Origin: a plasmid
Direction: 5' to 3' (one strand)
DNA length: 64,000 nt
Sequence record: NZ_CP148139.1
A program made the translations under genes and the position numbers. Positions 23,994 to 62,065 of the stretch are shown one piece after another. Positions within the stretch are counted from its first letter, which is position 1. Each line of letters begins with the position of its first letter. The notes below the pieces were generated by a model, which saw nothing but the letters and a program-made list of their open reading frames with translations, was not told where the DNA came from and searched no databases.

Positions 23994-24096
23994 GATATAT
24001 CTCCCAATTTGTGTAGGGCTTATTATGCACGCTTAAAAATAATAAAAGCAGACTTGACCTGATAGTTTGGCTGTGAGCAATTATGTGCTTAGTGCA

Positions 24097-24160
24097 TCTA
24101 ACGCTTGAGTTAAGCCGCGCCGCGAAGCGGCGTCGGCTTGAACGAATTGTTAGACATTAT
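24097..24160 (-). promoter_or_regulatory. attC: attC (59-be) of the aadA1 cassette
   Basis: gcctaacaattcgttcaagccgacgccgcttcgcggcgcggcttaactcaagcgttagatgcac on the minus strand matches the aadA1 attC. Confidence 0.7.
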
Positions 24161-24948
24161 TTGCCGACTACCTTGGTGATCTCGCCTTTCACGTAGTGAA
24201 CAAATTCTTCCAACTGATCTGCGCGGGAGGCCAAGCGATCTTCTTCTTGTCCAAGATAAGCCTGTCTAGCTTCAAGTATGACGGGCTGATACTGGGCCGG
24301 CAGGCGCTCCATTGCCCAGTCGGCAGCGACATCCTTCGGCGCGATTTTGCCGGTTACTGCGCTGTACCAAATGCGGGACAACGTAAGCACTACATTTCGC
24401 TCATCGCCAGCCCAGTCGGGCGGCGAGTTCCATAGCGTTAAGGTTTCATTTAGCGCCTCAAATAGATCCTGTTCAGGAACCGGATCAAAGAGTTCCTCCG
24501 CCGCTGGACCTACCAAGGCAACGCTATGTTCTCTTGCTTTTGTCAGCAAGATAGCCAGATCAATGTCGATCGTGGCTGGCTCGAAGATACCTGCAAGAAT
24601 GTCATTGCGCTGCCATTCTCCAAATTGCAGTTCGCGCTTAGCTGGATAACGCCACGGAATGATGTCGTCGTGCACAACAATGGTGACTTCTACAGCGCGG
24701 AGAATCTCGCTCTCTCCAGGGGAAGCCGAAGTTTCCAAAAGGTCGTTGATCAAAGCTCGCCGCGTTGTTTCATCAAGCCTTACGGTCACCGTAACCAGCA
24801 AATCAATATCACTGTGTGGCTTCAGGCCGCCATCCACTGCGGAGCCGTACAAATGTACGGCCAGCAACGTCGGTTCGAGATGGCGCTCGATGACGCCAAC
24901 TACCTCTGATAGTTGAGTCGATACTTCGGCGATCACCGCTTCCCTCAT
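24157..24948 (-). CDS. aadA1: Aminoglycoside 3''-adenylyltransferase AadA1
   Basis: MREAVIAEVSTQLSEVVGVIERHLEPTLLAVHLYGSAVDGGLKPHSDIDLLVTVTVRLDETTRRALINDLLETSASPGESEILRAVEVTIVVHDDIIPWRY...VKGEITKVVGK (263 aa). Confidence 0.95.
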   Translation of the reverse strand: MREAVIAEVSTQLSEVVGVIERHLEPTLLAVHLYGSAVDGGLKPHSDIDLLVTVTVRLDETTRRALINDLLETSASPGESEILRAVEVTIVVHDDIIPWRYPAKRELQFGEWQRNDILAGIFEPATIDIDLAILLTKAREHSVALVGPAAEELFDPVPEQDLFEALNETLTLWNSPPDWAGDERNVVLTLSRIWYSAVTGKIAPKDVAADWAMERLPAQYQPVILEARQAYLGQEEDRLASRADQLEEFVHYVKGEITKVVGK

Positions 24949-24964
24949 GATGTTTAACTTTGTT

Positions 24965-25765
24965 TTAGCCACCAATGATGCCCTCACTTTCCATGATTTT
25001 GGTGGGAATGGATTTTCTTAGCGGCAACTTACTTTCGTTGTCTATATCCATGTTAAAGGCGAAAAAGTAAACCTCTGTCTCCTTCTCAACCCACCCAACC
25101 CACCATGCGACACCAGGATTTGACTCAGTTCCCACACCAGAAAAACCAGTTTTTGAATGCACTAGATATTCAGGTGCCGCCTCCGTTACCAAAGCCTCTT
25201 TTACTATTAGCTGGTTTTCTTTAGATGCTGACAATTTATTTAAATATAGAGACTCTAGAAACTCCACTTGATTAACTGCGGAAATTCTAAGCTGGCCTTC
25301 CAACCAGAATTTGTCAATGCCACCACTGATATTCTGGTTGCCATAGGAAAATTTTTTAAGGTATTTCTGCATTCTTACTTCGCCAACTTCTCTGGCGATT
25401 TGTTGAAATACGGGAACAGCTGAAACTTGTATTGCCCCTCTTAAGGTCAAGTCTCTTTCCCATTGCTTCATGGCTCTTGGCTTTCCGTCCCATTTGAAAA
25501 CCTGATGCTCATTCTTTATGACACCAGTTTCTAGGCCGATAATTGCGTTGGGGATCTTAAATGTTGATGCTGGAAGATATTCCTTTGATGCACGAGCTAA
25601 GTCATTGGTAGCGCAGGATTTACTGCTACTTTTACAAAGCACGAAGACACCATTGACGGCTTCGGCAGAGAACTCTTTGTTCCAAGACGTATTTTCTGTA
25701 ATTGAACCAGCTAATGCCGTACTCGAAAGACACGCGATAATTACATATGCGGCAAATGTTTTCAT
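24965..25765 (-). CDS. blaOXA-10: Class D beta-lactamase, OXA-10 family
   Basis: [82 protein letters not shown]... matches OXA-10 (PSE-2) from memory. It is followed directly by GTTAAAC and the aadA1 start, with no attC of its own. Confidence 0.9.
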
Positions 25766-25794
25766 GGCACCTTCTTGGTGGCTAACGCCAGAAT

Positions 25795-25853
25795 TAAGCC
25801 GTGCCGCGAAGCGGCGTCGGCTTGAATGAATTGTTAGACGACAAACTCGCGCC
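25795..25853 (-). promoter_or_regulatory. attC: attC of the catB cassette (aadA1/aadB-like sequence)
   Basis: gtctaacaattcattcaagccgacgccgcttcgcggcacggcttaattctggc on the minus strand. Confidence 0.6.
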
Positions 25854-26466
25854 AATACTTATGCAGACCAAAAATATTTGACGAGCACAGCAGAGGCATT
25901 GCTGTCTTAATTTTATCCAGTGGCCAGTTCCACCACTCCATCTCCATGAGCAATGAGATTTCCTCATCGGAGAAGCGCTTCTTAATTTGCTTTGCGGGAC
26001 TTCCTCCGATGATGGCATAAGGCACTACATCTTTTGTCACCAACGAGCGACTACCTATCACGGCACCGTCTCCAATTTTGATTCCGGGCATAATCATTGC
26101 CTCCGAGCCTATCCAGACATCATTGCCAATGGCGGTATCACCTGCTCTTTGGAAGGCATCGAGTGCGCTTGAGAAAGCAGGTTCCTCTTGCATATAGAAG
26201 AAGGGGAAGGATGATGCCCAGTCATGCCGATGCCCCTGATTGCCAGCCATGATGAAGGAAGCCCCGCTTCCTATAGAACAAAAGCTGCCAATGATCAATT
26301 TATCAACGTCATCACGATCTGGATGCAAGTATCGCGCGCATTCATCAAATGAGTGGCCGTGATAGTAGCCAGAGTAATAGCTATAACGGCCTACTTTGAT
26401 GTTTGGATTTTTCACTTGCTCAGAAAGAAGCTCCCCTTTGAAAGGGCTGTCAAAGTAGTTTTTCAT
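25834..26466 (-). CDS. catB8: Chloramphenicol acetyltransferase CatB (xenobiotic acetyltransferase hexapeptide family), catB8-like
   Basis: [80 protein letters not shown]... (210 aa) is very close to CatB3/CatB8 from memory. Confidence 0.85.
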
Positions 26467-26499
26467 CAGAGTTCGTGGAACCTTTTCTTGCCGTCTAAC

Positions 26500-26558
26500 A
26501 CCTGAGTTAAGCCGCGCCGCGAAGCGGCGTCGGCTTGGACGAATTGTTAGGCCGCATA
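26500..26558 (-). promoter_or_regulatory. attC: attC of the aadB cassette
   Basis: gcctaacaattcgtccaagccgacgccgcttcgcggcgcggcttaactcaggtgttag on the minus strand matches the aadB attC. Confidence 0.7.
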
Positions 26559-27080
26559 TCGCGACCTGAAAGCGGCACGCAAGACCTCAACCTTTTCCGC
26601 CCCGAGTGAGGTGCATGCGAGCCTGTAGGACTCTATGTGCTTTGTAGGCCAGTCCACTGGTGGTACTTCATCGGCATAGTAAAAGTAATCCCAGATGATC
26701 GCCTCCCAGCTGTTACAACGGACTGGCCGCCCGGCGATGACGCCCTCAGCCGCCTCTGGGCACGAGCCCTGCGGAGCCTCCGCGATTTCATACGCTTCGT
26801 CTGCCCACCAAGCAGGTTCGCAGTCAAGTAACTCATCCCCGATCTCCGCTAAGAATCCATAGTCCAACTCCTCCATGACGCGCCCGCCGAGCATTTCAAC
26901 TATTGCCTCGAGCTCGCCGCGCCTCTCGCCGGGAAACGTCAGATCAATATCATCGTGCTTGCGTGTTACACGCCCTAGCCGTGCATCGATCGCCCAGCCC
27001 CCACCGATCCAGAGCGGCAGATTTCGCTCATCTGCCGCAGCTAGAATTTTGTGTATCAATGTGACCTGCGTTGTGTCCAT
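26547..27080 (-). CDS. aadB: Aminoglycoside 2''-nucleotidyltransferase ANT(2'')-Ia
   Basis: [76 protein letters not shown]... (177 aa). Confidence 0.9.
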
Positions 27081-27160
27081 GCGGCCTAACTTTGTTTTAG
27101 GGCGACTGCCCTGCTGCGTAACATCGTTGCTGCTCCATAACATCAAACATCGACCCACGG
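27081..27160 (-). promoter_or_regulatory. attI1: attI1 recombination site region between the first cassette and intI1
   Basis: Position between the aadB start and the divergent intI1 start. Boundaries are approximate. Confidence 0.45.
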
Positions 27161-27225
27161 CGTAACGCGCTTGCTGCTTGGATGCCCGAGGCATAGACTG
27201 TACAAAAAAACAGTCATAACAAGCC

Positions 27226-28239
27226 ATGAAAACCGCCACTGCGCCGTTACCACCGCTGCGTTCGGTCAAGGTTCTGGACCAGTTGCGTGAGCGCATACGC
27301 TACTTGCATTACAGTTTACGAACCGAACAGGCTTATGTCAACTGGGTTCGTGCCTTCATCCGTTTCCACGGTGTGCGTCACCCGGCAACCTTGGGCAGCA
27401 GCGAAGTCGAGGCATTTCTGTCCTGGCTGGCGAACGAGCGCAAGGTTTCGGTCTCCACGCATCGTCAGGCATTGGCGGCCTTGCTGTTCTTCTACGGCAA
27501 GGTGCTGTGCACGGATCTGCCCTGGCTTCAGGAGATCGGAAGACCTCGGCCGTCGCGGCGCTTGCCGGTGGTGCTGACCCCGGATGAAGTGGTTCGCATC
27601 CTCGGTTTTCTGGAAGGCGAGCATCGTTTGTTCGCCCAGCTTCTGTATGGAACGGGCATGCGGATCAGTGAGGGTTTGCAACTGCGGGTCAAGGATCTGG
27701 ATTTCGATCACGGCACGATCATCGTGCGGGAGGGCAAGGGCTCCAAGGATCGGGCCTTGATGTTACCCGAGAGCTTGGCACCCAGCCTGCGCGAGCAGCT
27801 GTCGCGTGCACGGGCATGGTGGCTGAAGGACCAGGCCGAGGGCCGCAGCGGCGTTGCGCTTCCCGACGCCCTTGAGCGGAAGTATCCGCGCGCCGGGCAT
27901 TCCTGGCCGTGGTTCTGGGTTTTTGCGCAGCACACGCATTCGACCGATCCACGGAGCGGTGTCGTGCGTCGCCATCACATGTATGACCAGACCTTTCAGC
28001 GCGCCTTCAAACGTGCCGTAGAACAAGCAGGCATCACGAAGCCCGCCACACCGCACACCCTCCGCCACTCGTTCGCGACGGCCTTGCTCCGCAGCGGTTA
28101 CGACATTCGAACCGTGCAGGATCTGCTCGGCCATTCCGACGTCTCTACGACGATGATTTACACGCATGTGCTGAAAGTTGGCGGTGCCGGAGTGCGCTCA
28201 CCGCTTGATGCGCTGCCGCCCCTCACTAGTGAGAGGTAG
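27226..28239 (+). CDS. intI1: Class 1 integron integrase IntI1
   Basis: [94 protein letters not shown]... (337 aa). Confidence 0.95.
27313..27341 (-). promoter_or_regulatory. Pc: Integron cassette promoter Pc, strong variant (TTGACA-17 bp-TAAACT), inside the intI1 5' coding region
   Basis: The minus strand reads ttgacataagcctgttcggttcgtaaact, spanning the tgtcaa (27336-27341) and agttta (27313-27318) plus-strand hexamers. Confidence 0.6.
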
Positions 28240-28417
28240 GGCAGCGCAAGTCAATCCTGGCGGATTCACTACCCCTGCGCGAAGGCCATCGGTGCCGCAT
28301 CGAACGGCCGGTTGCGGAAAGTCCTCCCTGCGTCCGCTGATGGCCGGCAGCAGCCCGTCGTTGCCTGATGGATCCAACCCCTCCGCTGCTATAGTGCAGT
28401 CGGCTTCTGACGTTCAG

Positions 28418-28442
28418 TGCAGCCGTCTTCTGAAAACGACAC
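28418..28442 (-). repeat. IRi: IRi, the 25-bp inverted repeat at the intI1 end of the class 1 integron
   Basis: gtgcagccgtcttctgaaaacgaca is the reverse complement of TGTCGTTTTCAGAAGACGGCTGCAC. Confidence 0.7.
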
Positions 28443-28544
28443 CATGTGCAAACGATGTCAGAATAGAGTTAAATTTCCTATTGATTGACATATTCCGTCA
28501 AAGGTAATAGATTTCATCCTGACACTTTTGCCTTTGGAGGCATC
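28443..28544 (+). promoter_or_regulatory. res: Residual res subsite(s) and tnpR promoter; the integron boundary lies only about 100 bp upstream of tnpR
   Basis: Short AT-rich interval between IRi and the tnpR start. In Tn21-family elements the res site lies immediately upstream of tnpR. Confidence 0.4.
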
Positions 28545-29102
28545 TTGCAAGGTCAACGCATCGGCTATGTCCGCGTCAGCAGCTTCGACCAGAACCCGGA
28601 ACGGCAATTGGAGGGTGTTCAGGTGGCGCGGGTGTTCACCGACAAGGCTTCTGGCAAGGACACCCAGCGTCCCGAGCTGGAAAGGCTGCTGGCCTTCGTC
28701 CGCGAGGGCGACACCGTGGTGGTGCATAGCATGGACAGGCTGGCACGCAACCTTGATGACCTGCGCCGCATCGTCCAAGGGCTGACACAACGGGGCGTGC
28801 GCATGGAGTTCGTCAAAGAAGGGCTGAAGTTCACCGGCGAGGACTCACCGATGGCCAATCTGATGCTGTCGGTCATGGGAGCCTTCGCTGAGTTCGAGCG
28901 CGCCCTGATCCGCGAACGTCAGCGCGAGGGAATCGTGCTGGCCAAGCAGCGCGGTGCCTACCGGGGACGAAAGAAATCGCTGAACAGCGAACAAATTGCC
29001 GAGTTGAAACGGCGAGTTGCGGCAGGCGACCAAAAAACCTTGGTGGCCCGTGACTTCGGCATCAGCCGCGAAACCTTGTACCAGTACCTGCGGGAAGACT
29101 GA
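28545..29102 (+). CDS. tnpR: Tn21-subgroup resolvase TnpR (serine recombinase), TTG start
   Basis: (L)[22 protein letters not shown]... parallels Tn21 Tnp[27 protein letters not shown] ggagg 5 nt upstream of TTG. Confidence 0.85.
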
Positions 29103-29104
29103 CC

Positions 29105-32077
29105 ATGCCACGCCGCTCAATCCTGTCCGCCACCGAGCGCGAAAGCCTGCTGGCACTGCCAGATGCCAAAGACGAACTGATACGGCACTACACGTTCAAC
29201 GAAACCGACCTGTCGGTGATCCGTCAGCGTCGCGGCGCCGCGAATCGATTGGGCTTCGCTGTGCAGCTTTGCTACTTGCGATTCCCTGGCACCTTTTTGG
29301 GCGTCGATGAGCCTCCGTTTCCGCCCCTGTTGCGCATGGTGGCCGCGCAACTCAAGATGCCAGTGGAAAGTTGGAGCGAGTACGGCCAGCGCGAACAGAC
29401 ACGGCGGGAGCACTTGGTCGAGCTGCAAACGGTTTTTGGGTTCAAGCCCTTCACCATGAGCCACTATCGGCAAGCCGTGCATACATTGACCGAGCTGGCC
29501 TTGCAGACCGACAAAGGCATCGTGCTGGCGAGCGCACTTGTCGAGAATCTGCGGCGGCAGAGCATTATCCTGCCCGCCATGAATGCCATCGAGCGCGCAA
29601 GCGCCGAGGCCATCACCCGTGCCAACCGACGCATTTACGCGGCGCTGACCGATTCTTTGTTATCACCCCACCGTCAGCGCCTGGACGAACTTCTCAAGCG
29701 CAAGGACGGCAGTAAAGTGACGTGGCTGGCATGGCTGCGCCAGTCGCCTGCCAAACCGAACTCTCGCCACATGCTCGAACATATTGAGCGCCTGAAATCC
29801 TGGCAAGCACTTGATCTGCCCGCAGGCATCGAGCGGCAGGTTCACCAGAACCGCCTGCTCAAAATCGCTCGTGAAGGTGGCCAGATGACGCCTGCTGATC
29901 TGGCAAAGTTCGAGGTGCAACGACGCTATGCCACGCTGGTAGCGCTGGCCATCGAAGGCATGGCCACCGTCACCGATGAAATCATCGACCTTCACGATCG
30001 CATCATCGGCAAGCTGTTCAACGCGGCCAAGAACAAGCATCAGCAGCAGTTCCAGGCTTCCGGCAAGGCGATCAACGACAAGGTGCGGATGTATGGGCGC
30101 ATCGGTCAAGCGTTGATTGAGGCCAAGCAAAGCGGCAGCGATCCGTTCGCCGCCATCGAGGCCGTTATGCCCTGGGACACCTTCGCCGCCAGCGTCACCG
30201 AAGCGCAAACATTGGCGCGGCCTGCCGACTTTGATTTCCTGCACCACATCGGTGAAAGCTATGCCACGCTACGCCGCTACGCGCCGCAGTTCCTGGGCGT
30301 GCTCAAATTGCGGGCTGCGCCCGCCGCCAAGGGTGTGCTCGATGCCATCGACATGCTGCGCGGCATGAACAGCGACAGCGCGCGCAAGGTGCCCGCCGAT
30401 GCGCCAACCGCATTCATCAAGCCGCGCTGGGCAAAGCTGGTTCTGACCGACGACGGCATCGACCGGCGTTACTACGAGTTATGCGCCCTGTCGGAGCTGA
30501 AGAACGCGCTGCGCTCCGGTGATGTCTGGGTGCAGGGTTCTCGCCAGTTCAAGGACTTCGACGAATACCTGGTGCCGGTCGAGAAGTTCGCCACTTTGAA
30601 GCTGGCCAGCGAATTGCCGCTGGCAGTGGCCACCGACTGCGACCAATACCTGCATGACCGGTTGGAATTGTTGGAGGCGCAACTCGCCACAGTCAACCGC
30701 ATGGCTGCGGCCAACGACTTACCGGATGCCATCATCACCACCGCGTCAGGCCTGAAGATCACGCCGCTGGACGCGGCAGTACCAGACGCCGCGCAAGCCA
30801 TGATCGACCAGACAGCTATGCTGCTGCCGCACCTCAAAATCACCGAGTTGCTGATGGAGGTCGATGAATGGACGGGCTTCACCCGCCACTTCACACACCT
30901 GAAGACCAGCGACACGGCCAAGGACAAAACCTTGCTGTTGACGACGATCCTGGCCGACGCGATCAACCTGGGTCTGACCAAAATGGCCGAGTCCTGCCCT
31001 GGCACCACCTACGCCAAGCTGTCTTGGCTGCAAGCCTGGCACATCCGCGATGAAACCTATTCGACGGCGCTGGCCGAGCTGGTGAATGCGCAGTTTCGGC
31101 AACCCTTCGCCGGCAACTGGGGTGACGGCACCACGTCATCGTCGGACGGCCAGAACTTCAGAACCGGCAGCAAAGCAGAAAGCACTGGTCATATCAACCC
31201 GAAGTATGGAAGCAGTCCAGGACGGACTTTCTACACCCATATCTCCGACCAGTACGCGCCCTTCAGTGCCAAGGTGGTCAACGTGGGCATTCGTGATTCA
31301 ACTTACGTGCTTGATGGCCTGCTGTACCACGAGTCGGACTTGCGCATCGAGGAACACTACACCGACACGGCAGGCTTCACCGATCACGTGTTTGGCTTGA
31401 TGCATTTGCTGGGATTTCGCTTCGCGCCGCGTATCCGTGACTTGGGCGAAACCAAGCTATTCATCCCCAAGGGCGATGCCGCCTATGACGCGCTCAAGCC
31501 GATGATTAGCAGCGACAGGCTGAACATCAAGCAAATACGCGCCCATTGGGATGAAATTCTGCGGCTGGCCACCTCCATCAAGCAAGGCACGGTAACGGCT
31601 TCGCTGATGCTGCGCAAACTCGGCAGCTACCCGCGCCAGAACGGCTTGGCCGTGGCGTTGCGCGAGCTGGGGCGCATCGAGCGCACGCTGTTCATTTTGG
31701 ATTGGCTGCAAAGCGTGGAGCTGCGCCGCCGCGTCCATGCGGGGCTGAATAAGGGCGAGGCGCGCAACGCGCTGGCCAGGGCGGTCTTCTTCTACCGATT
31801 GGGTGAAATCCGCGACCGCAGTTTTGAGCAGCAGCGCTACCGGGCCAGCGGCCTCAATCTGGTGACGGCGGCCATCGTGTTGTGGAACACGGTATATCTG
31901 GAGCGTGCCACCAGTGCTTTGCGTGGCAACGGCACGGCGCTGGACGACACATTGTTGCAATATCTGTCGCCGCTGGGGTGGGAGCACATCAACCTGACCG
32001 GCGATTACCTATGGCGCAGCAGCGCCAAGGTCGGTGCGGGGAAGTTTAGGCCATTGCGACCGCTGCCACCGGCTTAG
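29105..32077 (+). CDS. tnpA: Tn21-subgroup (Tn3 family) transposase TnpA
   Basis: 990-aa ORF directly after tnpR, ending inside the 38-bp terminal IR as in Tn21/Tn1696. Confidence 0.9.
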
Positions 32078-39496: not shown

Positions 39497-39790
39497 GCCT
39501 CTAATTGTTAATGTGATGCATCTGAGATTTATTTGATGCGATATTGAGTATGTTTGTAATTTTAACAGTGGGAGTTGAGTGTCGCAAGAGGTTGATGTGA
39601 GATTAATTTGAGAAATATCAGGGTGTAAAAATCATAATGAAAATGAAAATATATCATTTAGATGTGGGTGTGATGCATAACTGAGGTTTATATGAGGCTT
39701 ATTCTATGTGGTATTACTGTGTGAGGATTAATTGAGGTATATCTGATGTGTGTAGATATACCTCGATACCTTGACTGTGAATGTGTATCA
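39497..39790. promoter_or_regulatory. parC: Candidate parC centromere/promoter: repeated ga(g/t)(a/g)tt(a/t)atttgag-type 11-bp motifs upstream of parM
   Basis: Repeats such as ctgagatttatttgatg, gtgagattaatttgag, ctgaggtttatatgagg and gaggattaattgagg, seen directly. Confidence 0.45.
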
Positions 39791-53067: not shown

Positions 53068-54099
53068 TTAAGGTTTTGTAACTTGAGATCGTTTTTGGAT
53101 ATATTCAACAAATAGAATTGGGTCATTTAAAATATCGTCTGGCATATCTTTGATTATGTCGCTGTCAATATATCCATTGTGATTAAGGGGAAGTGTGCTT
53201 GTGTAATCTTGTTCAGAAATTAGTTTTGCATCTTTAGCAATCAACACAGTGCGTTCCTTCAGAGAATCACTACTGATAGCGCTAAATGAAATGATTCTGA
53301 TATCTTTAGGGGGTATGGCTAATGCAATCGCTGGTACATTAGTAATTCCAAGTTTTTTGGCTTGACCGGTATCAATTTTCATATTGTTAAATTCATTTTG
53401 AGGTAGAGGGAGACCATCAACAGAAATAGGAATTACATTTATGCTAGTTTCATGACTAAATGTTTTTAAAACAAAGGCTTGCTTCTCACATAAAGGACAG
53501 TCCTTTCCTTTAAAAAAGAAAAAGATACCTGCTTTACTTGAAATGCTATTCAAAACACGTCCTCTATTTTCGTCAGCTACTCGTGTTTGCTCCATAGCCG
53601 CAAATGAGGATGTGGATCGGCGATTGTTTTCATCAATGAAAGGATCAGTAGTAGTTACCAGTCTCGCCATATCTGCATAACGGCTGGCTTTGTCCAGCAT
53701 GATCCGTTGCACGTAATAGTATCGCCTTACATTCTCTTTAGTCGGATTGTCAATTGCCTCATCTCGTAACTTCTGAATGTTTTCCCGATACCATTTAACA
53801 GTAAATTTCGGCTCTGGTGCAGGAGCTGGCGCTGGTATTAGTTTTGGTTCAACTGGCTTAGGTTTTGGTGTATCTGGTTTTGGTTTAGTTGGAATGATTG
53901 GCTTTGGTTTCGTGACTTGCTTTTCATTATAGAAAAACCACCCTTCATCTTTTTTTTCCAAGTCTTGTACACTTCCACCAATTACCTGCTCAGAATCATC
54001 GTATGCTTTCTTGGGCTCCTGATTTGCCAAAGAATAACCTGTTCCTGAAAATGAGATAGCTACAATTACAGCCATAGATAAATATTTATGTTTTCTCAT
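53068..54099 (-). CDS. traF: TraF-like periplasmic thioredoxin-fold protein with CxxC (CPLC) and an N-terminal Pro/Lys-rich linker
   Basis: Signal peptide, a PKPKPxxPKP...PAPAPAPEP linker and a thioredoxin-like FFFFKGKDCPLCEKQAFVLKTF. Sits in the traF position before traH. Confidence 0.6.
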   Translation of the reverse strand: MRKHKYLSMAVIVAISFSGTGYSLANQEPKKAYDDSEQVIGGSVQDLEKKDEGWFFYNEKQVTKPKPIIPTKPKPDTPKPKPVEPKLIPAPAPAPEPKFTVKWYRENIQKLRDEAIDNPTKENVRRYYYVQRIMLDKASRYADMARLVTTTDPFIDENNRRSTSSFAAMEQTRVADENRGRVLNSISSKAGIFFFFKGKDCPLCEKQAFVLKTFSHETSINVIPISVDGLPLPQNEFNNMKIDTGQAKKLGITNVPAIALAIPPKDIRIISFSAISSDSLKERTVLIAKDAKLISEQDYTSTLPLNHNGYIDSDIIKDMPDDILNDPILFVEYIQKRSQVTKP

Positions 54100-54334
54100 T
54101 GAAATTCACTTATGTTTGATGACAGCGACCTAATAAAAATGTTTTGCATTAGGAAAACACTGTTTTTATTCATTTTTTACATGGAAAATATTTGTATTTT
54201 ATAATTGCAATAATTATTTTTTCTTGTATTAGGGTGATAAATTTCAAGCAAAAAAAAGCCCCCGACGAAGGAGGCTTTATAGTTGTTGTAAGTGAAAACA
54301 AACTTTGTGTAACAACGCGAAAAGTAACCTTTTA

Positions 54335-56110
54335 CTATCGTGCTGTGACTATTAAATTTGCACACATTTGAAGTATGGATTGCTCAATTTCATTGAAATT
54401 ATTGATAAATATTGTATTTTTACCAAATATCCCCTTGAAATAGGCTTCGTTTGCACCATCTTCGTTCAATACAAAGGTACAGACTTCTATCCCTTCGATT
54501 GTTGCTGAATTGATGATTTCTTTTGTCTTTTTATCATCATTAGGTTCCCCGTCAGTGATAATAAAAATCATCTTTTTCTTTTCCCTTGATAGAGCGATTT
54601 CGCTTATTACGGGAATCAAACTTTCAGCCAATGGAGTAGAGCCTAAACATCCTTTGTGCGTAAAAACACCTTGAGAAATACTTGCGCGAAGCGGTGTGTA
54701 TCTTGGCTTCATCGTTTGTACTAGTAGTGAATTGGATTCTTCAACGTAAAACGGAAATGCATAGCAAGCGGTTGAAACACCTGAGATATTTAACCCTTCC
54801 AATACTGCAATGACGGAAGATAATGCAGCTCGAATACGAGATGTATCAAAGTGGTATTCATGCATTGAGGAACTAGTATCAAGTAAAATAGAACAAGCAC
54901 AATTTGGGCTTTGGATAACATTTTTAGTCTTAAAAATGTTAGTGTTTCCCGTTTTAACACCTGCTAATTTACTAGATTTAATTCTTGCGCCTTGCTCCCT
55001 TAACCGTGAAGTGGATGTAGTATTATCATGGACTAATTTTTCAAATGACCGGCGTAATCTACTTCCTGTTGTCAAACTTCTTTTAATATCAAGAGAAGTT
55101 ATTGTTTGAGTGGCTTGATCAAAATTCTTCTTCCACTCTGTGTTAATAATAGCAACGTTAAAAAAATCATTAACTATTCCCTTGGAACTCATATCCTTTT
55201 TAAGTTGTTCCTTATTCGAGATTGTAGATGTTATATCTTGAATAACATTGGCATTTATAGTATCGAATGAAACATCCTTAAAAATATCGCTAAAACTCTC
55301 TGGATCTGAATCTAAATCGTCAATATCAGTTTCGGTTGAAAAATTGGCGTCATTAGGTCCATTTGAAGTTTTACCCATACCAGAGCAGTCAGAGTTGCCA
55401 GAACCGTCAGAGTCATTCCCCTCAGAGTTACCGTAATTATCAGAGCTCCCATTAGAAGGAGGTAACGTATCTTGTGGTTTGAGTTGAAGGGCTGTTGCTA
55501 GAACAATGAATAATTTTTTTGCGATCAGATTATTATCGACAGTAGTTGTGGATAAAAGCACCATTTCTAATAATCTATCAACCTTGTCAGAAATTGTTTT
55601 GGTAAAGATTGAAATGAATTGAAGTTTTAGATCGTTAATGTTGTTAACAACGACTCCGTTATATTTACTTCTACCATGCAGTAAAACGTAGTTGATGAAA
55701 AACGTAATTTTTTCCTCAATTGAAATAACGGAGTTAATAGGCTTTTCGGTAAAAACATGTTGTCTTACGGCATCCAAGTAATACTTGGCACCACCATAAA
55801 CATGCTCTAACTTTGATTCAATCCAGATATCTTCGCAAATGTTTTCTAATACACTAATATATTTGTTGCCTGTTTGAGCAACAAATGAAAAATCAGTGAA
55901 TTTGGCATGTCCAATTTCATGAAGTAAAAAACCTAACAAAATATTACCGAAAGATGTATCAGTTGTGTAAGGAATCCCTATTTCATATTTACCACTTTCA
56001 GATACACCACAATACGCTTCATCAGTAGTAAACTTAATTGAAATGTCAAATTTGCCAGCCAATACATTAGCAACGATTGCTAATGAGGCTGCACTTCTTA
56101 ATTGTTTCAT
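54335..56110 (-). CDS. Two-domain protein: N-terminal zincin-like metallopeptidase (HEIGH) and C-terminal von Willebrand factor A domain with MIDAS motif (DTSSS); 'CobT-like'
   Basis: Motifs LLGFLLHEIGHAKF (HExxH) and ILLDTSSSMHEY (DxSxS), plus downstream vWA-like beta-alpha repeats, were seen directly in the translation. Confidence 0.7.
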   Translation of the reverse strand: MKQLRSAASLAIVANVLAGKFDISIKFTTDEAYCGVSESGKYEIGIPYTTDTSFGNILLGFLLHEIGHAKFTDFSFVAQTGNKYISVLENICEDIWIESKLEHVYGGAKYYLDAVRQHVFTEKPINSVISIEEKITFFINYVLLHGRSKYNGVVVNNINDLKLQFISIFTKTISDKVDRLLEMVLLSTTTVDNNLIAKKLFIVLATALQLKPQDTLPPSNGSSDNYGNSEGNDSDGSGNSDCSGMGKTSNGPNDANFSTETDIDDLDSDPESFSDIFKDVSFDTINANVIQDITSTISNKEQLKKDMSSKGIVNDFFNVAIINTEWKKNFDQATQTITSLDIKRSLTTGSRLRRSFEKLVHDNTTSTSRLREQGARIKSSKLAGVKTGNTNIFKTKNVIQSPNCACSILLDTSSSMHEYHFDTSRIRAALSSVIAVLEGLNISGVSTACYAFPFYVEESNSLLVQTMKPRYTPLRASISQGVFTHKGCLGSTPLAESLIPVISEIALSREKKKMIFIITDGEPNDDKKTKEIINSATIEGIEVCTFVLNEDGANEAYFKGIFGKNTIFINNFNEIEQSILQMCANLIVTAR

Positions 56111-56174
56111 ATATATACCTATTTAAATAAAAACGCCTGAATAAATTCAGGCGTTAGTTTGGTTTCCCATATTA

Positions 56175-57362
56175 TTAGTAGAAAAATGGAACATCCTGAT
56201 TTTCATCTTCAACACTAAAGGATGAACTTGCAGGTAGATCCGAAGAAACTACTTCAGGTTCTGATTGAACATCAATTGGTGTCGGAGTTGGTGTCGTATT
56301 TTCTACAACATCTTGACTCACATTCGGCACTGTAACCGTTTGTGAGTTTTCGGCGACATTCACAATGTTTAAATCGTTTTCTGTTGGTTCAGCAAGATCA
56401 TCTTCATCGACTACAATTTCAATGAAATCACTATCAGTATTACCCGTTACAGGTACTGAAGTTGGTATGGCAATTGATACATCAATGTTGTTTGTAGTTT
56501 GTGGTAAAACAGTTAATTCCACATCTGATACATTGTTCACATTGGTGGAGTTTATTAACTGCTTCAAAGTTTTAATGTCTGATAACGTAATAAAAAGTGT
56601 TGTTACGGCAATTGATTCGTCATTAGACAATCTCCCAACGCTTGGCAACGTTGAAATAAAGTTACTCAAATAATCACTTAAACTGCCAGCATCTGGATTT
56701 AATACAGCTAATCCTTTCAGCTTACTTGCAACTTCTCGTAACGTATTGAGTGTAGTTTGAGATATGTTTGATGCATTGTATGAGCCACGTTCCCGTAACT
56801 CAGAAATTCTATCAACAACATCAAGCAGGACAGATTCTTTAAGGCTTTGTACTTTTTCTTCTGACTCGCCTTCACCAAAGGGTGAAATATTGAAAGAAGA
56901 AAAACCAAATTGTAGCTTTTCATCTAACCGCTTGACGTCAATCACTTCGGACTCAAACAGTTTTTTTACAGTTTCATCTTCTTTATCTAACCATGAAAGA
57001 AAATCAGTTGATATAGCGGATAAAAACTCATTTTTGAATATATAGAATTGGTCCTTTAAATCATTCAACTGCTGTCTTACGTGACTTGCAAGTGAAGTCG
57101 GCACTGCATACCCGTTCAAGAATGGAACACCATATTTTGAACAGATTGCATCAGCACCAGTACGAAAGGTACGCATTTTGTTGATTTTTGCAGGGTCAAT
57201 AACCTTTTTGGTTCCGAGGCTGGCTATTGTTTCGGGAGGCAGAACTATATCTCCAGTGTTAATAACCTTAATATCTTTACCTTTAAGTGTTTTTCTTCCA
57301 GTAGTTAAACGGATACCTTCCAGAGAAAAAATTACTACGTTTTCAAGAATGTTTGGGCTCAT
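56175..57362 (-). CDS. Hypothetical protein (395 aa) between the AAA ATPase and vWA genes; acidic, T/P-rich C-terminus
   Basis: ORF on the same strand with short intergenic spacers and the shared TTTAAATAGGT initiation motif. Confidence 0.45.
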   Translation of the reverse strand: MSPNILENVVIFSLEGIRLTTGRKTLKGKDIKVINTGDIVLPPETIASLGTKKVIDPAKINKMRTFRTGADAICSKYGVPFLNGYAVPTSLASHVRQQLNDLKDQFYIFKNEFLSAISTDFLSWLDKEDETVKKLFESEVIDVKRLDEKLQFGFSSFNISPFGEGESEEKVQSLKESVLLDVVDRISELRERGSYNASNISQTTLNTLREVASKLKGLAVLNPDAGSLSDYLSNFISTLPSVGRLSNDESIAVTTLFITLSDIKTLKQLINSTNVNNVSDVELTVLPQTTNNIDVSIAIPTSVPVTGNTDSDFIEIVVDEDDLAEPTENDLNIVNVAENSQTVTVPNVSQDVVENTTPTPTPIDVQSEPEVVSSDLPASSSFSVEDENQDVPFFY

Positions 57363-57460
57363 AAATTCACCTACATATTTATATATTTAAAAAAGGCAAA
57401 TAGATAAATCTATTTACCTTGTCGATTTATTAATAATTAAAATTAAAAATAAGATTTGAA

Positions 57461-58468
57461 TTAAGATTTAAAATAAACATTAAACATATCGTTCAATGCT
57501 ATTTTTTCATCTTCAGGAGCTCTGTTAGAGATATGTAATTGCCATGCATCTAACAGAATATCTACCGGTGGTTGTTTAGAACGAAGCATAAAATCGAAAC
57601 GGCGAACAACATTCACAAGGCTTCTAGTTGAAATAGCGGTACTACTGAAGTTAGTGACTGTCGCAGATGTACTTTTACGTACATCGTTAGCCAGCTTTAT
57701 TAGTCCATCCGTCAGTAACTGATGTGATTCAGGATCAGACAAAAATGAAGCAAGTAGCTTACGTTCTTCTTTTTCGGGCATATAGTCAGCCTCAACAAAC
57801 ATAAACCTATCGAGGTTGGCTATATTCTGCGGTTTTACACCACTGTAATTTCCTGTCATATCACCGGTCCCATTACTGTTTGCAGTTACTGCAAATCTAA
57901 AGTTTTCATGGTGATGAATGCATTCATTTGTTTCAGGAATGACAAGAGAACCCATCTCTAAGATCCCGTTGAGGGAATTAGCTACGGAAGGTTCTAATTG
58001 GTCATACTCATCAATCAGAAAAACCAACCCATGCTTATACGCGATGGTTAGCGGTCCTTCATGAAAGACGGTTTCTTGATCACCCGTTAATTTATCGACT
58101 TTTAGCCGAAAACTACCGAGTAAGCTACTCATATCAAGATCAGGACTGGCTGTTACTTTCATCAATCCCCAATTCATACGAGCAGCAATTTGCTCAACTA
58201 TTGACGATTTTCCACAGCCAGTAGGTCCAGAAATCCAGAGTGATGTATCTAATGGGTTATCAAACCACATTAACACATGCTTTCTGAGTGAAGGTTCAAA
58301 CACATACTTCTCATTAAATTTCGGGATATACTCTGAAAATTGATGGTCATTAGAAAAACCCTTGATACTATATTTGCCCTTTAAATTCTCAGGCAGAATA
58401 ATACCTAAAGATTCCATATCGACCGGAGTGTTACGTTTAATATCAAAACTGTTATTTACAGCGTTCAT
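57461..58468 (-). CDS. MoxR/CbbQ-like AAA+ ATPase ('CobS-like')
   Basis: Walker A ISGPTGCGKSSIVE and Walker B VFLIDEYDQ. About 335 aa, the size of MoxR-class AAA ATPases. Confidence 0.75.
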   Translation of the reverse strand: MNAVNNSFDIKRNTPVDMESLGIILPENLKGKYSIKGFSNDHQFSEYIPKFNEKYVFEPSLRKHVLMWFDNPLDTSLWISGPTGCGKSSIVEQIAARMNWGLMKVTASPDLDMSSLLGSFRLKVDKLTGDQETVFHEGPLTIAYKHGLVFLIDEYDQLEPSVANSLNGILEMGSLVIPETNECIHHHENFRFAVTANSNGTGDMTGNYSGVKPQNIANLDRFMFVEADYMPEKEERKLLASFLSDPESHQLLTDGLIKLANDVRKSTSATVTNFSSTAISTRSLVNVVRRFDFMLRSKQPPVDILLDAWQLHISNRAPEDEKIALNDMFNVYFKS

Positions 58469-58521: not shown

Positions 58522-58890
58522 TTAAATTGAACAATTAATAACACCGCAATGACGTTGACGTTTTAAAACCTCGCCATTCACAAATGTTGTTACTTGTTTT
58601 ACGTTGGTCATGTAAGTTTCAATGTCTAAATCTCTCATGCTTTTAGTAATAAAAGGAATGAGAAAAGATTTTCCACCAATCAAACATTTATTTGTTTTGT
58701 ACTTAACACTCAAGAATTCAGCAAATAAAGCAATGCTATTTGCTTGGTTTAATAAATCTTTTCTTTCGGTGTTTGTAACACGTAATAGCATACGAAGTTT
58801 TTCATTTTCATCTTGAGTTAAATCAATAACGCCAAAGTTTTTTTGATCCTCGGATGCAGCATAAGTTGTCATATTAATGATATTATTCAT
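58522..58890 (-). CDS. Hypothetical protein (122 aa)
   Basis: ORF between the exo and AAA genes on the same strand. Confidence 0.35.
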   Translation of the reverse strand: MNNIINMTTYAASEDQKNFGVIDLTQDENEKLRMLLRVTNTERKDLLNQANSIALFAEFLSVKYKTNKCLIGGKSFLIPFITKSMRDLDIETYMTNVKQVTTFVNGEVLKRQRHCGVINCSI

Positions 58891-58927: not shown

Positions 58928-60034
58928 TTATAAATATTTATATATATCTATTATTGAATCACCTTTCTGATTATTATCGTTATCTTGATAATTATCAGAG
59001 GATGATATTGAATTGGAAGAATGATATTCATAACTTGTTATTGATGTTCTAATTGACGACTCACCATAACAATCAGGATGATCTTCTTCATTGATACCCA
59101 ATTTCTCTCTTAGTTTCTTCCAAGAAAATCGTGGAGCGCTTTGAGATTCTAAATATCGAATTCCAAAGCCTTCAAGCCTCAAGGGAGCATTAGGTTGTAA
59201 CTTTAATACAGATGATAAAACCTTTATTTCATTTCTTATCTGTTCATCAAATGATGCTACTTTTTCTTTAGCTTCATTCAATTGTTTTTGTGCTAATTGA
59301 AATGCAGATTGTAATTCAACTAACTTTTTGGTTCGTGATATTAAATTATCAGGATTAATATTACGTTCTTTTAGTACATCATCACTATTTAAATAAATTA
59401 TATCCTTATTTACATCAAATTCAGGAGGCGTTTTGTTATTAACGCAATTCCAGAATCTTTTGGTGATGGTAACAACCTTATTTATTATTTTGTCATTAAT
59501 TTTTAATTTAAAGACAATAGGTGTTTCTTTAGCAGACCAGAATACCAAGTACCCGTATGTGCTGCCAGTAACTACCATTTGATGATAAACCTGCCATTTG
59601 TAATAGTTGAAAACTGAAGATTTTGCTTTTTCCTCTAATAACATACGGTGATTTTTTGGGGATATATTTTTGAACTCTACAACATCATTATTATCAATAA
59701 GTCCATCAAGTGAGGCTATCATGTGCGGATATTTCCTACTACGCACGCAACATGGACTACTGATTTCCCCATACTGATTCTCAAACCAGTGTCGGGCGAA
59801 CTGTTCGGATAGCTTCCCTACTTCAACTTGCCGTATACATGACAAATCCTTTGGAGGAATAGCACCGATCCATTCTAAATATAAGCTGTAAGGAGTATTG
59901 CTGAACTCATTTTTAACCTCGGGATTTAGTGTGGGGGTACACGTAGCTGTTACACCCGTTTTTCTCCAGCTTAACCATTTATCAGAGCCTTGAATGAGAT
60001 CATATATATCGAAATTATTCATATTAATATCCAA
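58928..60034 (-). CDS. exo: YqaJ/lambda-exonuclease-like PD-(D/E)xK recombination exonuclease with C-terminal extension
   Basis: The N-terminal LIQGSDKWLSWRKTGVTATC resembles YqaJ ...TEEWFAARLGKVTAS. Possible active-site residues lie in ASLDGLI...VEFKN. The gene sits downstream of a RecT-like gene. Confidence 0.55.
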   Translation of the reverse strand: MDINMNNFDIYDLIQGSDKWLSWRKTGVTATCTPTLNPEVKNEFSNTPYSLYLEWIGAIPPKDLSCIRQVEVGKLSEQFARHWFENQYGEISSPCCVRSRKYPHMIASLDGLIDNNDVVEFKNISPKNHRMLLEEKAKSSVFNYYKWQVYHQMVVTGSTYGYLVFWSAKETPIVFKLKINDKIINKVVTITKRFWNCVNNKTPPEFDVNKDIIYLNSDDVLKERNINPDNLISRTKKLVELQSAFQLAQKQLNEAKEKVASFDEQIRNEIKVLSSVLKLQPNAPLRLEGFGIRYLESQSAPRFSWKKLREKLGINEEDHPDCYGESSIRTSITSYEYHSSNSISSSDNYQDNDNNQKGDSIIDIYKYL

Positions 60035-60070: not shown

Positions 60071-61360
60071 TTAATTCCGCTCAATAGTAAGCAAAATATA
60101 ATCAGATAACGGTTTAAATTCGATAATAGACAACTTATTTATAAGTGGTGTCATATCGCTTTGTTTTTTGCAATCAGAGAATAACTGTCGGCAACAAGCT
60201 AAATCAGATTTAACTTGCTCAAGTGTTTTTATAAATGCCACTTGATCTGAACCTGAAACAGTTGAAATGAAATTATCAACATCTTCAAAATTATTATTCT
60301 GGATTGCATTAGTTAGTATTTTATTAAATACATTCTTTCTTTCTGCTATTAATTCCTCCTTTGCATATTCAATTTCAGCAGGATTAAACTCAAAGTTATT
60401 TGAGATTTCATCAAGCATACTTTCAAATGCATTGGTCTTGCTGCACCGTTCAACCAGCTTGTCAATCCGCCGTTTCACTCCATTACGAATGACATCAACT
60501 ACAATAGCCTCAGACACGTTTTTAGGCGAGTCTGTTACTACTGCTGAGTCTTGGTCGGTAAATGCGTGTACAGCTTCATAAGTAGTTGTTTCGAGCGAAA
60601 CAGGACGATTTTGAGTAAAACCCTCACCCCCATCTGTATTCAGATAATCAATTGTTCGCATGATTGCCTGATTAGCGTTAGGAAGTAAGTGTATACTGGA
60701 TTTGATAGCAGTTTTTCTGATCATCTGTGTAGTAAACAACGACCACGGAGATTTATCAGGACTATACAGCCAACTTGCAGATTTTAAACGGGCGCTTGCA
60801 ATATCACGTCTGGTTATGAAGTAAATCAAGTGAGTATCGTCATGCAGAAGGTAGTCAACATACACCCCCCTGAAATTACCTCTTTCACCGATTGAGCCTT
60901 TGTCGAATTGGTCTATAAGAATATTTCCAACATCAGCAAAAGGGTCATAGTGATGTGTTGGTGGTGTCCGTCTGCCATTGAACTCAAATTTATCTTTTTC
61001 AAAAACTAAATCTATAATTAAGTTTTTGCACATTTGAGCTTCAATAGCCATTTTAATTAAACCCAAATACGAGACATCAAGAATAACACGCTCATCTCTG
61101 GGTACTAAGTATGCTAATTTTTGAGCAGGGTCTAACGTTAGTGACGTTGTTGCAAGCTGTAAAAAAGCAGTTTTAAAACTAGCGGGATTATTAATAGCAA
61201 TCGCCATTAGTTTTTTGTTGTTATCAATCTGATTCTTAGCAAAAATTGCTTCATTAAAATACGATGTTTCACTAAGAGAGTTCTCAGTAAATTTCGGTTT
61301 TAAACTTGCGATTATGTTAGAAACAGCTTTGCTACCTTGAACTATATTCGATGATGACAT
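60071..61360 (-). CDS. bet: RecT/Red-beta-type single-strand annealing protein with a roughly 180-aa C-terminal extension
   Basis: TSLTLDPAQKLAYLVPRDERVILDVSYLGLIKMAIEA...VDLVFEKDKFEFNG parallels E. coli RecT LGLEPGSALGHAYLLPFG...QLIIGYRGMIDLARRSGQIASLSARVVREGDEFSFEFG. TTQMIRKTAIKSSIHLLP parallels RecT EEMAKKTAIRRLFKYLP. Confidence 0.6.
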   Translation of the reverse strand: MSSSNIVQGSKAVSNIIASLKPKFTENSLSETSYFNEAIFAKNQIDNNKKLMAIAINNPASFKTAFLQLATTSLTLDPAQKLAYLVPRDERVILDVSYLGLIKMAIEAQMCKNLIIDLVFEKDKFEFNGRRTPPTHHYDPFADVGNILIDQFDKGSIGERGNFRGVYVDYLLHDDTHLIYFITRRDIASARLKSASWLYSPDKSPWSLFTTQMIRKTAIKSSIHLLPNANQAIMRTIDYLNTDGGEGFTQNRPVSLETTTYEAVHAFTDQDSAVVTDSPKNVSEAIVVDVIRNGVKRRIDKLVERCSKTNAFESMLDEISNNFEFNPAEIEYAKEELIAERKNVFNKILTNAIQNNNFEDVDNFISTVSGSDQVAFIKTLEQVKSDLACCRQLFSDCKKQSDMTPLINKLSIIEFKPLSDYILLTIERN

Positions 61361-61437: not shown

Positions 61438-61935
61438 TCAAATAGATTTTTTACTATCTAATGAATTTAATAATTGGCTTTTTAACAAAAGCTGATTATT
61501 ATCATATTTATTTTCTTCCAATTTTTTATTTGATTCATCAAGCGAATTTCTGGATTTATTAAAGTTTAATATATCCGTTAACTCTCTGATGCGTTCTAAA
61601 CTTCTAACGCGCTGTTGTCTTGCTTCCTCATCTATTTCAATCTCTGATTTTGTTTGGTAAGTATTAACGCCATTGATTGATAATATAAATGGAAGAATAT
61701 AGAATCTTTCTTTAACAATATTGTTAATTACAGATTCTTTTAATTTAACTTCACCCTTTGCAAATATCGTATCATTGCTTTTAGCATTTGATAATATCTC
61801 TGCAAGTTTGAGGTCCTTACAAACTATATGAAAGTAAGCACTTTGATCTTCAAGCATGACATCATAAACTATTTTGTCTTTTACTTGAGTCGAGCGAATA
61901 ATATTTATTTTACCTGAGAATGATAATTCACACAT
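61438..61935 (-). CDS. Hypothetical protein (165 aa), possible OB-fold ssDNA-binding protein upstream of the annealing protein
   Basis: Position analogous to ssb in ssb-bet-exo modules. Weak beta-rich N-terminal half and a charged C-terminal tail. No strong motif. Confidence 0.3.
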   Translation of the reverse strand: MCELSFSGKINIIRSTQVKDKIVYDVMLEDQSAYFHIVCKDLKLAEILSNAKSNDTIFAKGEVKLKESVINNIVKERFYILPFILSINGVNTYQTKSEIEIDEEARQQRVRSLERIRELTDILNFNKSRNSLDESNKKLEENKYDNNQLLLKSQLLNSLDSKKSI

Positions 61936-62065
61936 ATTTTCACCTATTTATTAAATAAGAGACACATAATTAAAACTATGAGCTCAGAGTTTTTGAATAA
62001 AGTATATTCAATGATTGATTATATTTTATTAGGGCGTAGAAAAGCCTTGACTGTTAAGCGTGATG

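Follow-up and report, generated by a model that had tools for sequence, protein, structure and literature searches.

A CobS-like ATPase, a DUF3150 protein and a CobT-like zincin-motif/vWA protein in a pPrY2001-type conjugative plasmid: a conserved module with a possible role in host defence evasion

The stretch of DNA analysed here (the window) comprises 64,000 nucleotides of a plasmid, sequence record NZ_CP148139.1. Three co-oriented genes between positions 54,335 and 58,468 encode a CobS-like AAA ATPase of the MoxR class, a DUF3150 protein, and a CobT-like protein in which a zincin-type metallopeptidase motif (HExxH) is combined with a vWA domain carrying a metal ion-dependent adhesion site (MIDAS). 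This trio belongs, as a conserved module, to the backbone of MOBH plasmids and integrative and conjugative elements (ICEs). We read the trio as a machine that acts in the recipient, in host defence evasion and plasmid establishment, and consider the chances for and against this reading to be balanced. The reading is based on the homology of the ATPase, DUF3150 and vWA proteins to IncC genes, the restriction-dependent transfer defect of the IncC vcrx089-090 deletion, the single transcript found in IncC, and the synteny of the DUF3150-vWA pair with the ATPase gene and ssb/recT/exo. It is also based on the plasmid distribution of DUF3150, the conservation of the HExxH and MIDAS motifs, the fold of the vWA domain, and the co-variation of C-terminal tips within loci.

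Relation to the host defence evasion genes of IncC and SXT elements

The IncC/SXT host defence evasion (hde) set includes homologues of the ATPase (33% identity), the DUF3150 protein (28%, E=4e-28) and the zincin-vWA protein (22% over the full length, E=9e-32). As in the window, these genes are linked to recT/exo on MOBH/MPF_F elements, upstream of the tra genes. The ATPase of the window is the sole match of this kind to IncC Vcrx089, with 33% identity over 283 aa (E=1.6e-45).

In the IncC plasmid pVCR94, vcrx089-093 were described as a 'host defence evasion' operon, in which vcrx089 encodes an AAA_5/CbbQ_C ATPase (Roy et al. 2020, PMC7498323). Deletion of vcrx089 and vcrx090 decreased transfer 25-fold into Vibrio cholerae possessing type I restriction-modification (R-M), and had no effect when the recipient was an hsdR mutant. 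Transfer was restored by expressing the deleted genes in the recipient, not in the donor (PMC7498323). The ssb-bet-exo genes of IncC repair CRISPR-Cas breaks, and deletion of ssb-exo affects transfer only in the presence of a CRISPR target (PMC7498323). Complementary DNA (cDNA) primed in vcrx094 contained vcrx087, vcrx089 and bet (PMC7498323), therefore vcrx087 through vcrx094 form one transcript. The operon is followed by vcrx094/095; by its position after exo (vcrx093), vcrx094 is the DUF3150 gene of IncC. In pKAZ3, deletion of vcrx089-090 increased restriction by EcoKI/EcoBI 400-900-fold (Dimitriu et al. 2024, PMC11602122). The original prediction stated that the 'cobS/cobT-like' genes at the equivalent site of SXT/R391 and IncA/C backbones have no established function. 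Homologues are indeed located there, but the IncC ATPase together with Vcrx090 evades type I restriction. Among the roles then proposed, an establishment factor acting in recipients is favoured here, as the IncC ATPase homologue and Vcrx090 are complemented from the recipient only.

The SXT genes s064-s066 correspond to ssb, bet and exo, and deletions of bet, exo, s067, s068 and s070 decreased transfer of SXT at most 10-fold (PMC2791158). In our reading, the trio is not essential for transfer. Transposon sequencing of IncC, in which Cas+ was compared with delta-cas and both were R-M+, would be blind to an anti-restriction role of the genes downstream of exo. Our literature search found no study testing the DUF3150 or the vWA protein.

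Distribution and gene order

The search with tblastn revealed DUF3150 in 1107 plasmids, of which 969 are conjugative. Only one match was obtained in the phage collection, namely a Salmonella Typhimurium record of 127.7 kb whose 27.7% match equals that of IncC plasmids. Gene context was available for loci L002-L010, L012, L013 and L017-L024. These belong to IncC (L002), a Citrobacter AcaB-type plasmid (L003), Pseudomonas plasmids typed IncP/MOBH (L004, L008), plasmids of Shewanella, Aeromonas and Comamonas (L005-L007, L024), an IncT plasmid (L022), the MOBH/MPF_F Vibrio plasmid pVPS62 (L023), and five genomic loci (L017-L021). Diverse homologues were contributed by a contig of an NCBI genome assembly (L009) and by metagenomic or read-assembly contigs (L010, L012, L013).

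In every locus with enough context the zincin-vWA gene lies directly 3' of the DUF3150 gene, with an AAA_5 gene nearby, and in most of them ssb-recT-exo adjoins the DUF3150-vWA pair. Two arrangements were found. In IncC-type loci the order is ATPase, Vcrx090-like protein, (ssb), bet, exo, DUF3150, vWA. In window-type loci, which include IncT, Citrobacter and Pseudomonas plasmids, a protein of about 120 aa precedes a contiguous ATPase-DUF3150-vWA block. The order ssb-recT-exo-(small)-AAA-DUF3150-vWA recurs in L003, L009, L010 and L022. The contiguous module is ancestral in several plasmid families.

Genes resembling toprim/DUF7146 primases follow the vWA gene in L005 (10786-11967), L006 (11189-12556), L007 (11115-12155) and L010 (13516-14583), which is another link of the module to the processing of incoming DNA. 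CobT-like proteins of 759-836 aa with intact HExxH and MIDAS were also present in SSU5-like Klebsiella phage-plasmids (pJN2-26) and in Rhizobium phages. In these elements the CobT-like gene and a gene for a CobS-like ATPase are located immediately upstream of DnaE (L015 5947-9555; L016 5848-9690). DUF3150 is absent from these pairs, which are annotated as porphyrin/cobalamin biosynthesis.

Characteristics of the three proteins

The original prediction recognised an ATPase of the MoxR/CbbQ class and a fusion of a HEIGH peptidase motif to a vWA domain with an intact MIDAS (DTSSS). Both descriptions hold. The 395-aa middle protein had been described as acidic, which agrees with its pI of 4.4, and as lacking a recognisable domain, which does not agree with the full-length DUF3150 match reported below.

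The CobT-like protein was used in an exhaustive search, which yielded 2047 cluster representatives. Conservation was examined in 150 homologues from clusters at no more than 50% identity, which are 19-43% identical to the query. H64, E65 and H68 of the HEIGH motif were each found in 149 of the 150 homologues, the downstream residues N90, E93, D94 and E98 are 93-99% conserved, and the MIDAS residues D411, S413, S415, T492 and D520 were present in all 150. The domain architecture, with the vWA domain at the C-terminus, is invariant over this set. As both motifs are near-invariant across such diverse homologues, their occurrence in the window protein is not due to chance.

HEIGH lies within a predicted helix (residues 52-71) preceded by three strands, and E93, D94 and E98 lie within the next helix (83-104), which is the gluzincin-type arrangement of an HExxH helix followed by a downstream Glu. 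Comparison with known peptidase families gave weak matches to MPTase-PolyVal (E=0.02) in two out of 25 N-domains. The C-terminal domain possesses the vWA fold with the DxSxS...T...D site, and is nearest to the MIDAS domains that dock on ATPase rings, those of NorD and Midasin. Among 74 homologues, the Pfam families CobT (PF06213) and CobT_C (PF11775) were matched by 41 and 54, respectively; the window protein itself matched VWA only. The profile of the family aligned end to end (positions 6-579) with solved CobT 9uka_G (E=1.3e-32), which places the protein in the CobT-like family. At the position aligned to HExxH, solved CobT reads GDSM--ALRQ and has lost the motif. As judged from these alignments, the plasmid family thus appears to keep catalytically intact a domain that has degenerated in the chelatase.

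Alleles of the vWA protein with more than 95% identity (P0001-P0041) carry between 0 and about 8 copies of an 11-aa repeat, GNSEGN[DN]PDGS, in the linker (window 55376-55453, residues ~220-245). Their lengths range from 581 to 668 aa. The window allele is at the short end of this range, and its linker showed no tandem DNA repeat.

The ATPase possesses a Walker A motif GPTGCGKS (residues 81-88) and a Walker B motif LIDEYD (residues 151-156). It matched PF07728 (AAA_5) with E=6e-19 and 68.8 bits, against a gathering cutoff of 22, and belongs to the AAA_5/MoxR class. The CobS equivalog TIGR01650 scored 92.4 bits against a curated cutoff of 558, so that the protein is not a bona fide CobS. The nearest solved proteins are the AAA modules of Midasin and CobS (9ujv, E=3e-26); NorQ (E=2e-10) and CbbQ are more distant. 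The IncT homologue is 48% identical. RefSeq places the start of the ATPase at a GTG codon, V56 (window 58303), which gives 280 aa, compared to 335 aa from the ATG at 58468. Since residues 44-47 already mark the start of homology to CobS and Vcrx089, the longer reading frame (ATG at 58468 with 335 aa, or M18) is favoured.

The middle protein matched DUF3150 (PF11348), a catalogued domain of unknown function, over model positions 1-257 of 257, with E=1.7e-50 and 172 bits against a gathering cutoff of 24.9. Its C-terminal 133 residues are predicted to be disordered, with a per-residue model confidence (pLDDT) of about 30 in the AlphaFold2 (AF2) model. No solved relative of DUF3150 was found, and the AF2 model is too poor for fold assignment.

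Co-variation of C-terminal tips

The DUF3150 protein ends in a hydrophobic or aromatic tip in 19 out of 19 homologues examined, such as FFY, YFF, FWF, VWF, GFY and MVF. Similar tips were found in the unrelated Exo and Vcrx090-like proteins, and in Bet of IncC-type loci. They were compared in L002, L003, L005, L006, L009, L010 and L017-L024, and in the window (56178-56195 and 58928-58945). Tips are alike within a locus and unlike between loci (FWF, WF, YF, LF, VF). For instance, in L010 Exo ends in ..DFWF, both middle proteins in ..GFWF, and DUF3150 in ..GFWF. The tips are ..IWF, ..VWF and ..VWF in L009; ..SYF, ..NYF, ..AYF and ..CYF in pVPS62; ..TLF and ..FLF in IncT; and ..VVF and ..MVF in the Citrobacter plasmid. 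This co-variation is a new observation of the present analysis.

Exo and DUF3150 share their last two residues in five of ten divergent loci, where 0.8 are expected (permutation p~2e-4). Vcrx090-like proteins and DUF3150 do so in six of eight, where 1.25 are expected (permutation p~2e-4). The match in the window is looser, with Exo ending in ..IYKYL and DUF3150 in ..PFFY. Two aromatic residues within the last three positions occur in only two out of the 76 window open reading frames (ORFs) of at least 100 aa.

The acidic C-terminal tip of the single-stranded DNA-binding protein SSB (..DDDIPF) is a protein-docking peptide. Like the ends of DUF3150, Exo and Vcrx090-like proteins, it consists of a disordered acidic stretch with a hydrophobic or aromatic C-terminus. 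The SSB tip is universal, whereas the tips described here are specific to each locus (FWF, WF, YF, LF, FFY). Because they co-vary within loci and differ between loci, the sequences suggest that the tips share one docking site and that the gene for this receptor belongs to the same locus. Only two partners, the AAA ring and the vWA protein with its MIDAS face, occur in every locus.

The SSBs of IncC (L002 5102-5632), L009 (2105-2644) and the Comamonas plasmid (L024 2511-3143) carry a 9-residue extension, for example MRLHHLAGG, after ..DDIPF. In those three proteins the usual SSB tip is therefore internal and not C-terminal.

Proposed role and alternative readings

Under the favoured reading, an operon consisting of the 165-aa gene, recT, exo, the 122-aa gene and the genes for the ATPase, DUF3150 and zincin-vWA proteins would act in the recipient soon after DNA entry. 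The CobS-like ATPase would form a ring, by analogy with the CobS-CobT, NorQ-NorD and Midasin assemblies, on which the CobT-like protein would dock, with its MIDAS face holding a ligand that bears a carboxylate. ATP hydrolysis would then remodel a bound host protein, and the intact HExxH...E site, which true CobT does not retain, may couple remodelling to cleavage. DUF3150 could serve as a tethered adaptor or as a client in the docking site that it shares with Exo and, elsewhere, with Vcrx090-like proteins. Its acidic tail might act as a DNA-like lure, which is pure conjecture. Host restriction, chiefly of type I, would thereby be neutralised, and the repair of the incoming plasmid by Exo and Bet supported.

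In Escherichia coli, type I restriction is alleviated through degradation of HsdR by ClpXP. Given this precedent and the IncC phenotype, type I restriction complexes are the obvious candidate target. We infer the assembly of ring and adaptor, the docking of tips on the MIDAS, the proteolysis and the identity of the target, and this motor-adaptor mechanism in its details is held only tentatively, as a possibility with the balance clearly against it. Similarly doubtful is the proposal that the CobS-like ring and the zincin-vWA protein constitute an ATP-driven protease or remodeller hub reading locus-specific acidic-aromatic tips. DUF3150, Exo, Vcrx090-like proteins and sometimes Bet would then be interchangeable adaptors through which type I restriction complexes, or other host defence proteins, are captured and inactivated on the incoming DNA. 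If true, the hub would represent a plasmid-encoded, energy-consuming enzymatic anti-defence, analogous to restriction alleviation by ClpXP, and not a stoichiometric inhibitor.

The strongest alternative is an accessory role in recombination or replication, in which the AAA-vWA machine would act on DNA-bound proteins of the incoming strand, such as Exo, Bet and SSB, by loading, recycling or removing them. Cleavage of proteins stuck on DNA could be part of this role, which partly overlaps with the favoured reading. It would account for the tight synteny of the trio with ssb-recT-exo, the toprim/primase-like genes downstream in three loci, and the location of phage and phage-plasmid CobT/CobS-like pairs with intact HExxH next to DnaE. 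The tip that Exo, and Bet in IncC-type loci, share with DUF3150 is also consistent with it. However, in IncC the deletion of ssb-exo matters only with a CRISPR target, the defect of the ATPase deletion is specific to restriction, and trios without recT/exo occur in Pseudomonas and some metagenomic loci. We consider this alternative less probable than the defence-evasion reading, with perhaps a minor share of the likelihood.

MoxR-vWA pairs act as assembly chaperones in other systems, as in the NorQD and CobST structures, and the trio is immediately upstream of traFHG in the window, SXT, IncT and the Citrobacter plasmid. A donor-side chaperone of the conjugation machinery, in maturation or assembly of TraF/H/G or the pilus, was therefore considered, and type IV secretion system maturation had also been among the original proposals. 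Yet deletions of SXT s067, s068 and s070 reduce transfer by no more than 10-fold, the defect of the IncC ATPase is complemented only in the recipient, and a terminator separates the trio from traF. Moreover, the module is located away from tra genes in Shewanella, Aeromonas, L009, L010 and phages. Such a role is improbable.

A plasmid-borne defence or conflict system, namely a nucleoside triphosphate (NTP)-dependent vWA-MoxR effector module directed against phages or rival elements, is equally improbable. In combining a MoxR-class ATPase with a vWA domain and a peptidase motif, the trio is superficially similar to the ternary systems of Kaur et al. 2020, to which it had first been compared. 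However, the domain architecture is inverted, variable effectors are absent, and DUF3150 takes the place of VMAP or iSTAND. The trio belongs to a conserved backbone gene set and is not hotspot cargo, and in IncC it is co-transcribed with proven anti-defence genes. PADLOC-DB gave no system-level match for the trio and none for the DUF3150 or vWA proteins; weak partial matches were restricted to the P-loop region of the ATPase (IetA, E=5.6e-07, residues 62-119; mad8, E=0.001).

Genuine cobaltochelatase subunits, as in many annotations, are effectively refuted despite the pairwise homology to CobS and CobT: TIGR01650 is far below its cutoff (92 bits against 558), HExxH is retained here but not in solved CobT, neither the DUF3150 partner nor the plasmid/phage context fits, and no CobN or cobalamin genes were found between 48 and 64 kb, where the identifiable ORFs are tra and recombination genes, several ORFs are hypothetical and the only ORF above 1000 aa is traG.

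Genomic context and transcription

The trio-bearing plasmid is a pPrY2001-type MOBH/MPF_F conjugative plasmid, a resistance plasmid of Proteus and Providencia. A 4.8-kb stretch containing the trio is 100% identical in pSNYG35, which is typed MOBH/MPF_F, and 95-100% identical in 53 other plasmids of Proteus, Providencia, Moellerella and E. coli. Fifty-three out of the 54 matching plasmids cover at least 80% of this stretch, and all 54, which include pPrY2001 (NC_022589), are typed conjugative. RefSeq labels the three products 'MoxR family ATPase', 'DUF3150 domain-containing protein' and 'VWA domain-containing protein'. As originally described, all three genes are on the minus strand within the predicted limits, with RecT and YqaJ exonuclease genes upstream and traF, traH and traG downstream (Table 1).

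Table 1. Position of the trio, neighbouring genes, protein regions and putative regulatory elements in the window.
Feature	Position	Strand	Remarks
165-aa protein	61438-61935	-	occupies the ssb position of related operons
RecT/Bet annealase	60071..61360	-	Pfam RecT E=2e-13
YqaJ/lambda-type exonuclease (Exo)	58928..60034	-	Pfam YqaJ E=6e-19
Basic 122-aa protein	58522..58890	-	directly 5' of the AAA gene; conserved position
CobS-like AAA_5 (MoxR-class) ATPase, 335 aa	57461..58468	-	Walker A 58205-58228, Walker B 58001-58018; Pfam AAA_5
Hairpin and U-run between AAA and DUF3150 genes	57393..57420	-	dG -13.1, z=-4.4
DUF3150 protein, 395 aa	56175..57362	-	PF11348
DUF3150 folded domain, residues 1-262	56577-57362	-	
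DUF3150 acidic disordered tail, residues 263-395	56178-56576	-	24 D+E versus 2 K+R; tip ...DVPFFY
Hairpin and U-rich tract between DUF3150 and vWA genes	56132..56155	-	dG -14.2, z=-6.4
CobT-like zincin-motif/vWA protein, 591 aa	54335..56110	-	HEIGH and MIDAS
vWA-protein N-domain, residues 1-210	55481-56110	-	HEIGH residues 64-68 (55907-55921); ENICEDIWIE (55817-55846)
vWA-protein acidic repeat linker, residues 211-340	55091-55480	-	
vWA domain, residues ~400-591	54338-54913	-	MIDAS DTSSS residues 411-415 (54866-54880), plus T492 and D520
Intrinsic-terminator-like hairpin and U-run before traF	54255..54278	-	9 pairs, one G-U; dG -15.5 kcal/mol
traF	53068..54099	-	downstream of the trio, followed by traH and traG
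TAC[AG]CCCT[AG]ATA sites	54227-54237, 62027-62037, 39616-39626	-	

The genes from recT to the ATPase gene are separated by 36-53 bp. A gap of 235 bp and a terminator-like hairpin between the vWA gene and traF had been predicted, and both exist; the hairpin is at 54278..54255 (z=-3.9; none of 200 shuffles fold as well) and not at 54237-54262. Sigma-70-like sites are fewer than in shuffled sequence (27 versus 43.8) and none stands out, so that there is no support for a promoter before the trio. Because of the small gaps, the strong terminator located only after the vWA gene, and the reverse transcription PCR (RT-PCR) result in IncC, the trio is probably not its own transcription unit, as had been suggested, but the distal part of an operon starting upstream of the 165-aa gene. 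The two internal hairpins may grade expression along this operon.

Copies of TAC[AG]CCCT[AG]ATA are located upstream of three genes, traF, the 165-aa gene and one for 319 aa, at distances of 92-128 nt. The motif is similar to the GCGCCCTAAAA half of the AcaCD box as published, and is a candidate site for the FlhCD-like activator of the plasmid. It occurs 7 times in the window, which does not exceed the chance expectation of 5.1.

Homologues of the 122-aa protein were found at the same position in Citrobacter (E=2e-19), IncT (E=7e-19) and Pseudomonas plasmids, and it is likely a fourth member of the module in the window-type arrangement. No Pfam, PHROG or PADLOC match was obtained for this protein. 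Three of its homologues end in ..AA, like many vWA proteins (..LAA, ..FAA). The 165-aa protein at the ssb position gave no SSB or Pfam match. The sole tblastn match to IncC Ssb in the window is at 14141-14365 on the plus strand, away from the operon. BLASTP/TBLASTN, a hidden Markov model (HMM) built from seven Vcrx090-like proteins, and phmmer against six-frame ORFs revealed no Vcrx090-like gene in the window.

The regions 1-4000 and 16000-32000 of the window have a GC content of 0.51-0.65, compared to 0.29-0.43 in the backbone, consistent with inserted resistance or transposon regions. An ORF of 990 aa is present at 29105-32077.

Significance and comparison with known systems

Resistance genes, including those for carbapenemases, are spread across genera by plasmids of the pPrY2001, IncT, IncC and pAQU types and by SXT/R391 elements, whose host range is set by their ability to enter restriction-proficient hosts. 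In IncC, the ATPase gene and vcrx090 together improve transfer 25- to 900-fold against type I restriction. The module is not new in kind. Its genes are annotated and widespread, one relative has a published phenotype, and it is a variant of the IncC/SXT hde-linked set. Its interest rests on the intact zincin site and the shared tips. Establishing the mechanism would correct the widespread mislabelling as 'porphyrin/cobalamin biosynthesis' in phage-plasmids and phages.

In IncC, ssb-bet-exo splits the ATPase and Vcrx090 genes from the DUF3150-vWA pair, whereas in the window ATPase, DUF3150 and vWA genes are contiguous and preceded by the 122-aa protein. With the Vcrx089-Vcrx090 pair the window thus shares the AAA protein, not an adjacent Vcrx090. 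Restriction evasion by this pair was measured in IncC pVCR94 and pKAZ3 only. With the module of IncT (Rts1-like) plasmids, e.g. pCHS4.1-2, the window module is nearly co-linear. Both have the same order, ssb-recT-exo-small-AAA-DUF3150-vWA, with identities of 37/42/35/48/33/29% from recT through vWA. The ssb of IncT is recognisable, whereas the window has the 165-aa protein at that position, without SSB match.

ArdC-type anti-restriction proteins combine a single-stranded DNA-binding domain with a metalloprotease and shield the incoming strand from type I restriction. Similar to the vWA protein of the window, ArdC and MPTase-PolyVal zincins possess an HExxH domain, are encoded on conjugative elements and are linked to restriction evasion. 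However, ArdC has no AAA or vWA partner, and there is no significant sequence relationship.

The VMAP/iSTAND ternary systems (Kaur et al. 2020) are likewise made up of three genes, among which are those for a MoxR-class ATPase and a vWA protein. They differ from the trio in their host range, an N-terminal vWA domain, variable C-terminal effectors and a VMAP-C or iSTAND third part, whereas the trio has a C-terminal vWA domain, an invariant architecture and DUF3150.

The CobS-CobT pair of cobaltochelatase (9ujv/9uka) is homologous as a pair to the ATPase and vWA proteins of the window, and an acidic linker is present in both. Solved CobT lacks HExxH, while the window lacks the CobN client and possesses DUF3150 as an extra partner. 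NorQ-NorD, CbbQ-CbbO and Midasin/Rea1 likewise consist of an AAA_5 ring and a MIDAS adaptor; their clients are metabolic enzymes or pre-ribosomes, and they have no protease motif. By analogy, the mode of action of the window module is probably that of NorQD, CbbQO and Midasin, supplemented by a protease head.

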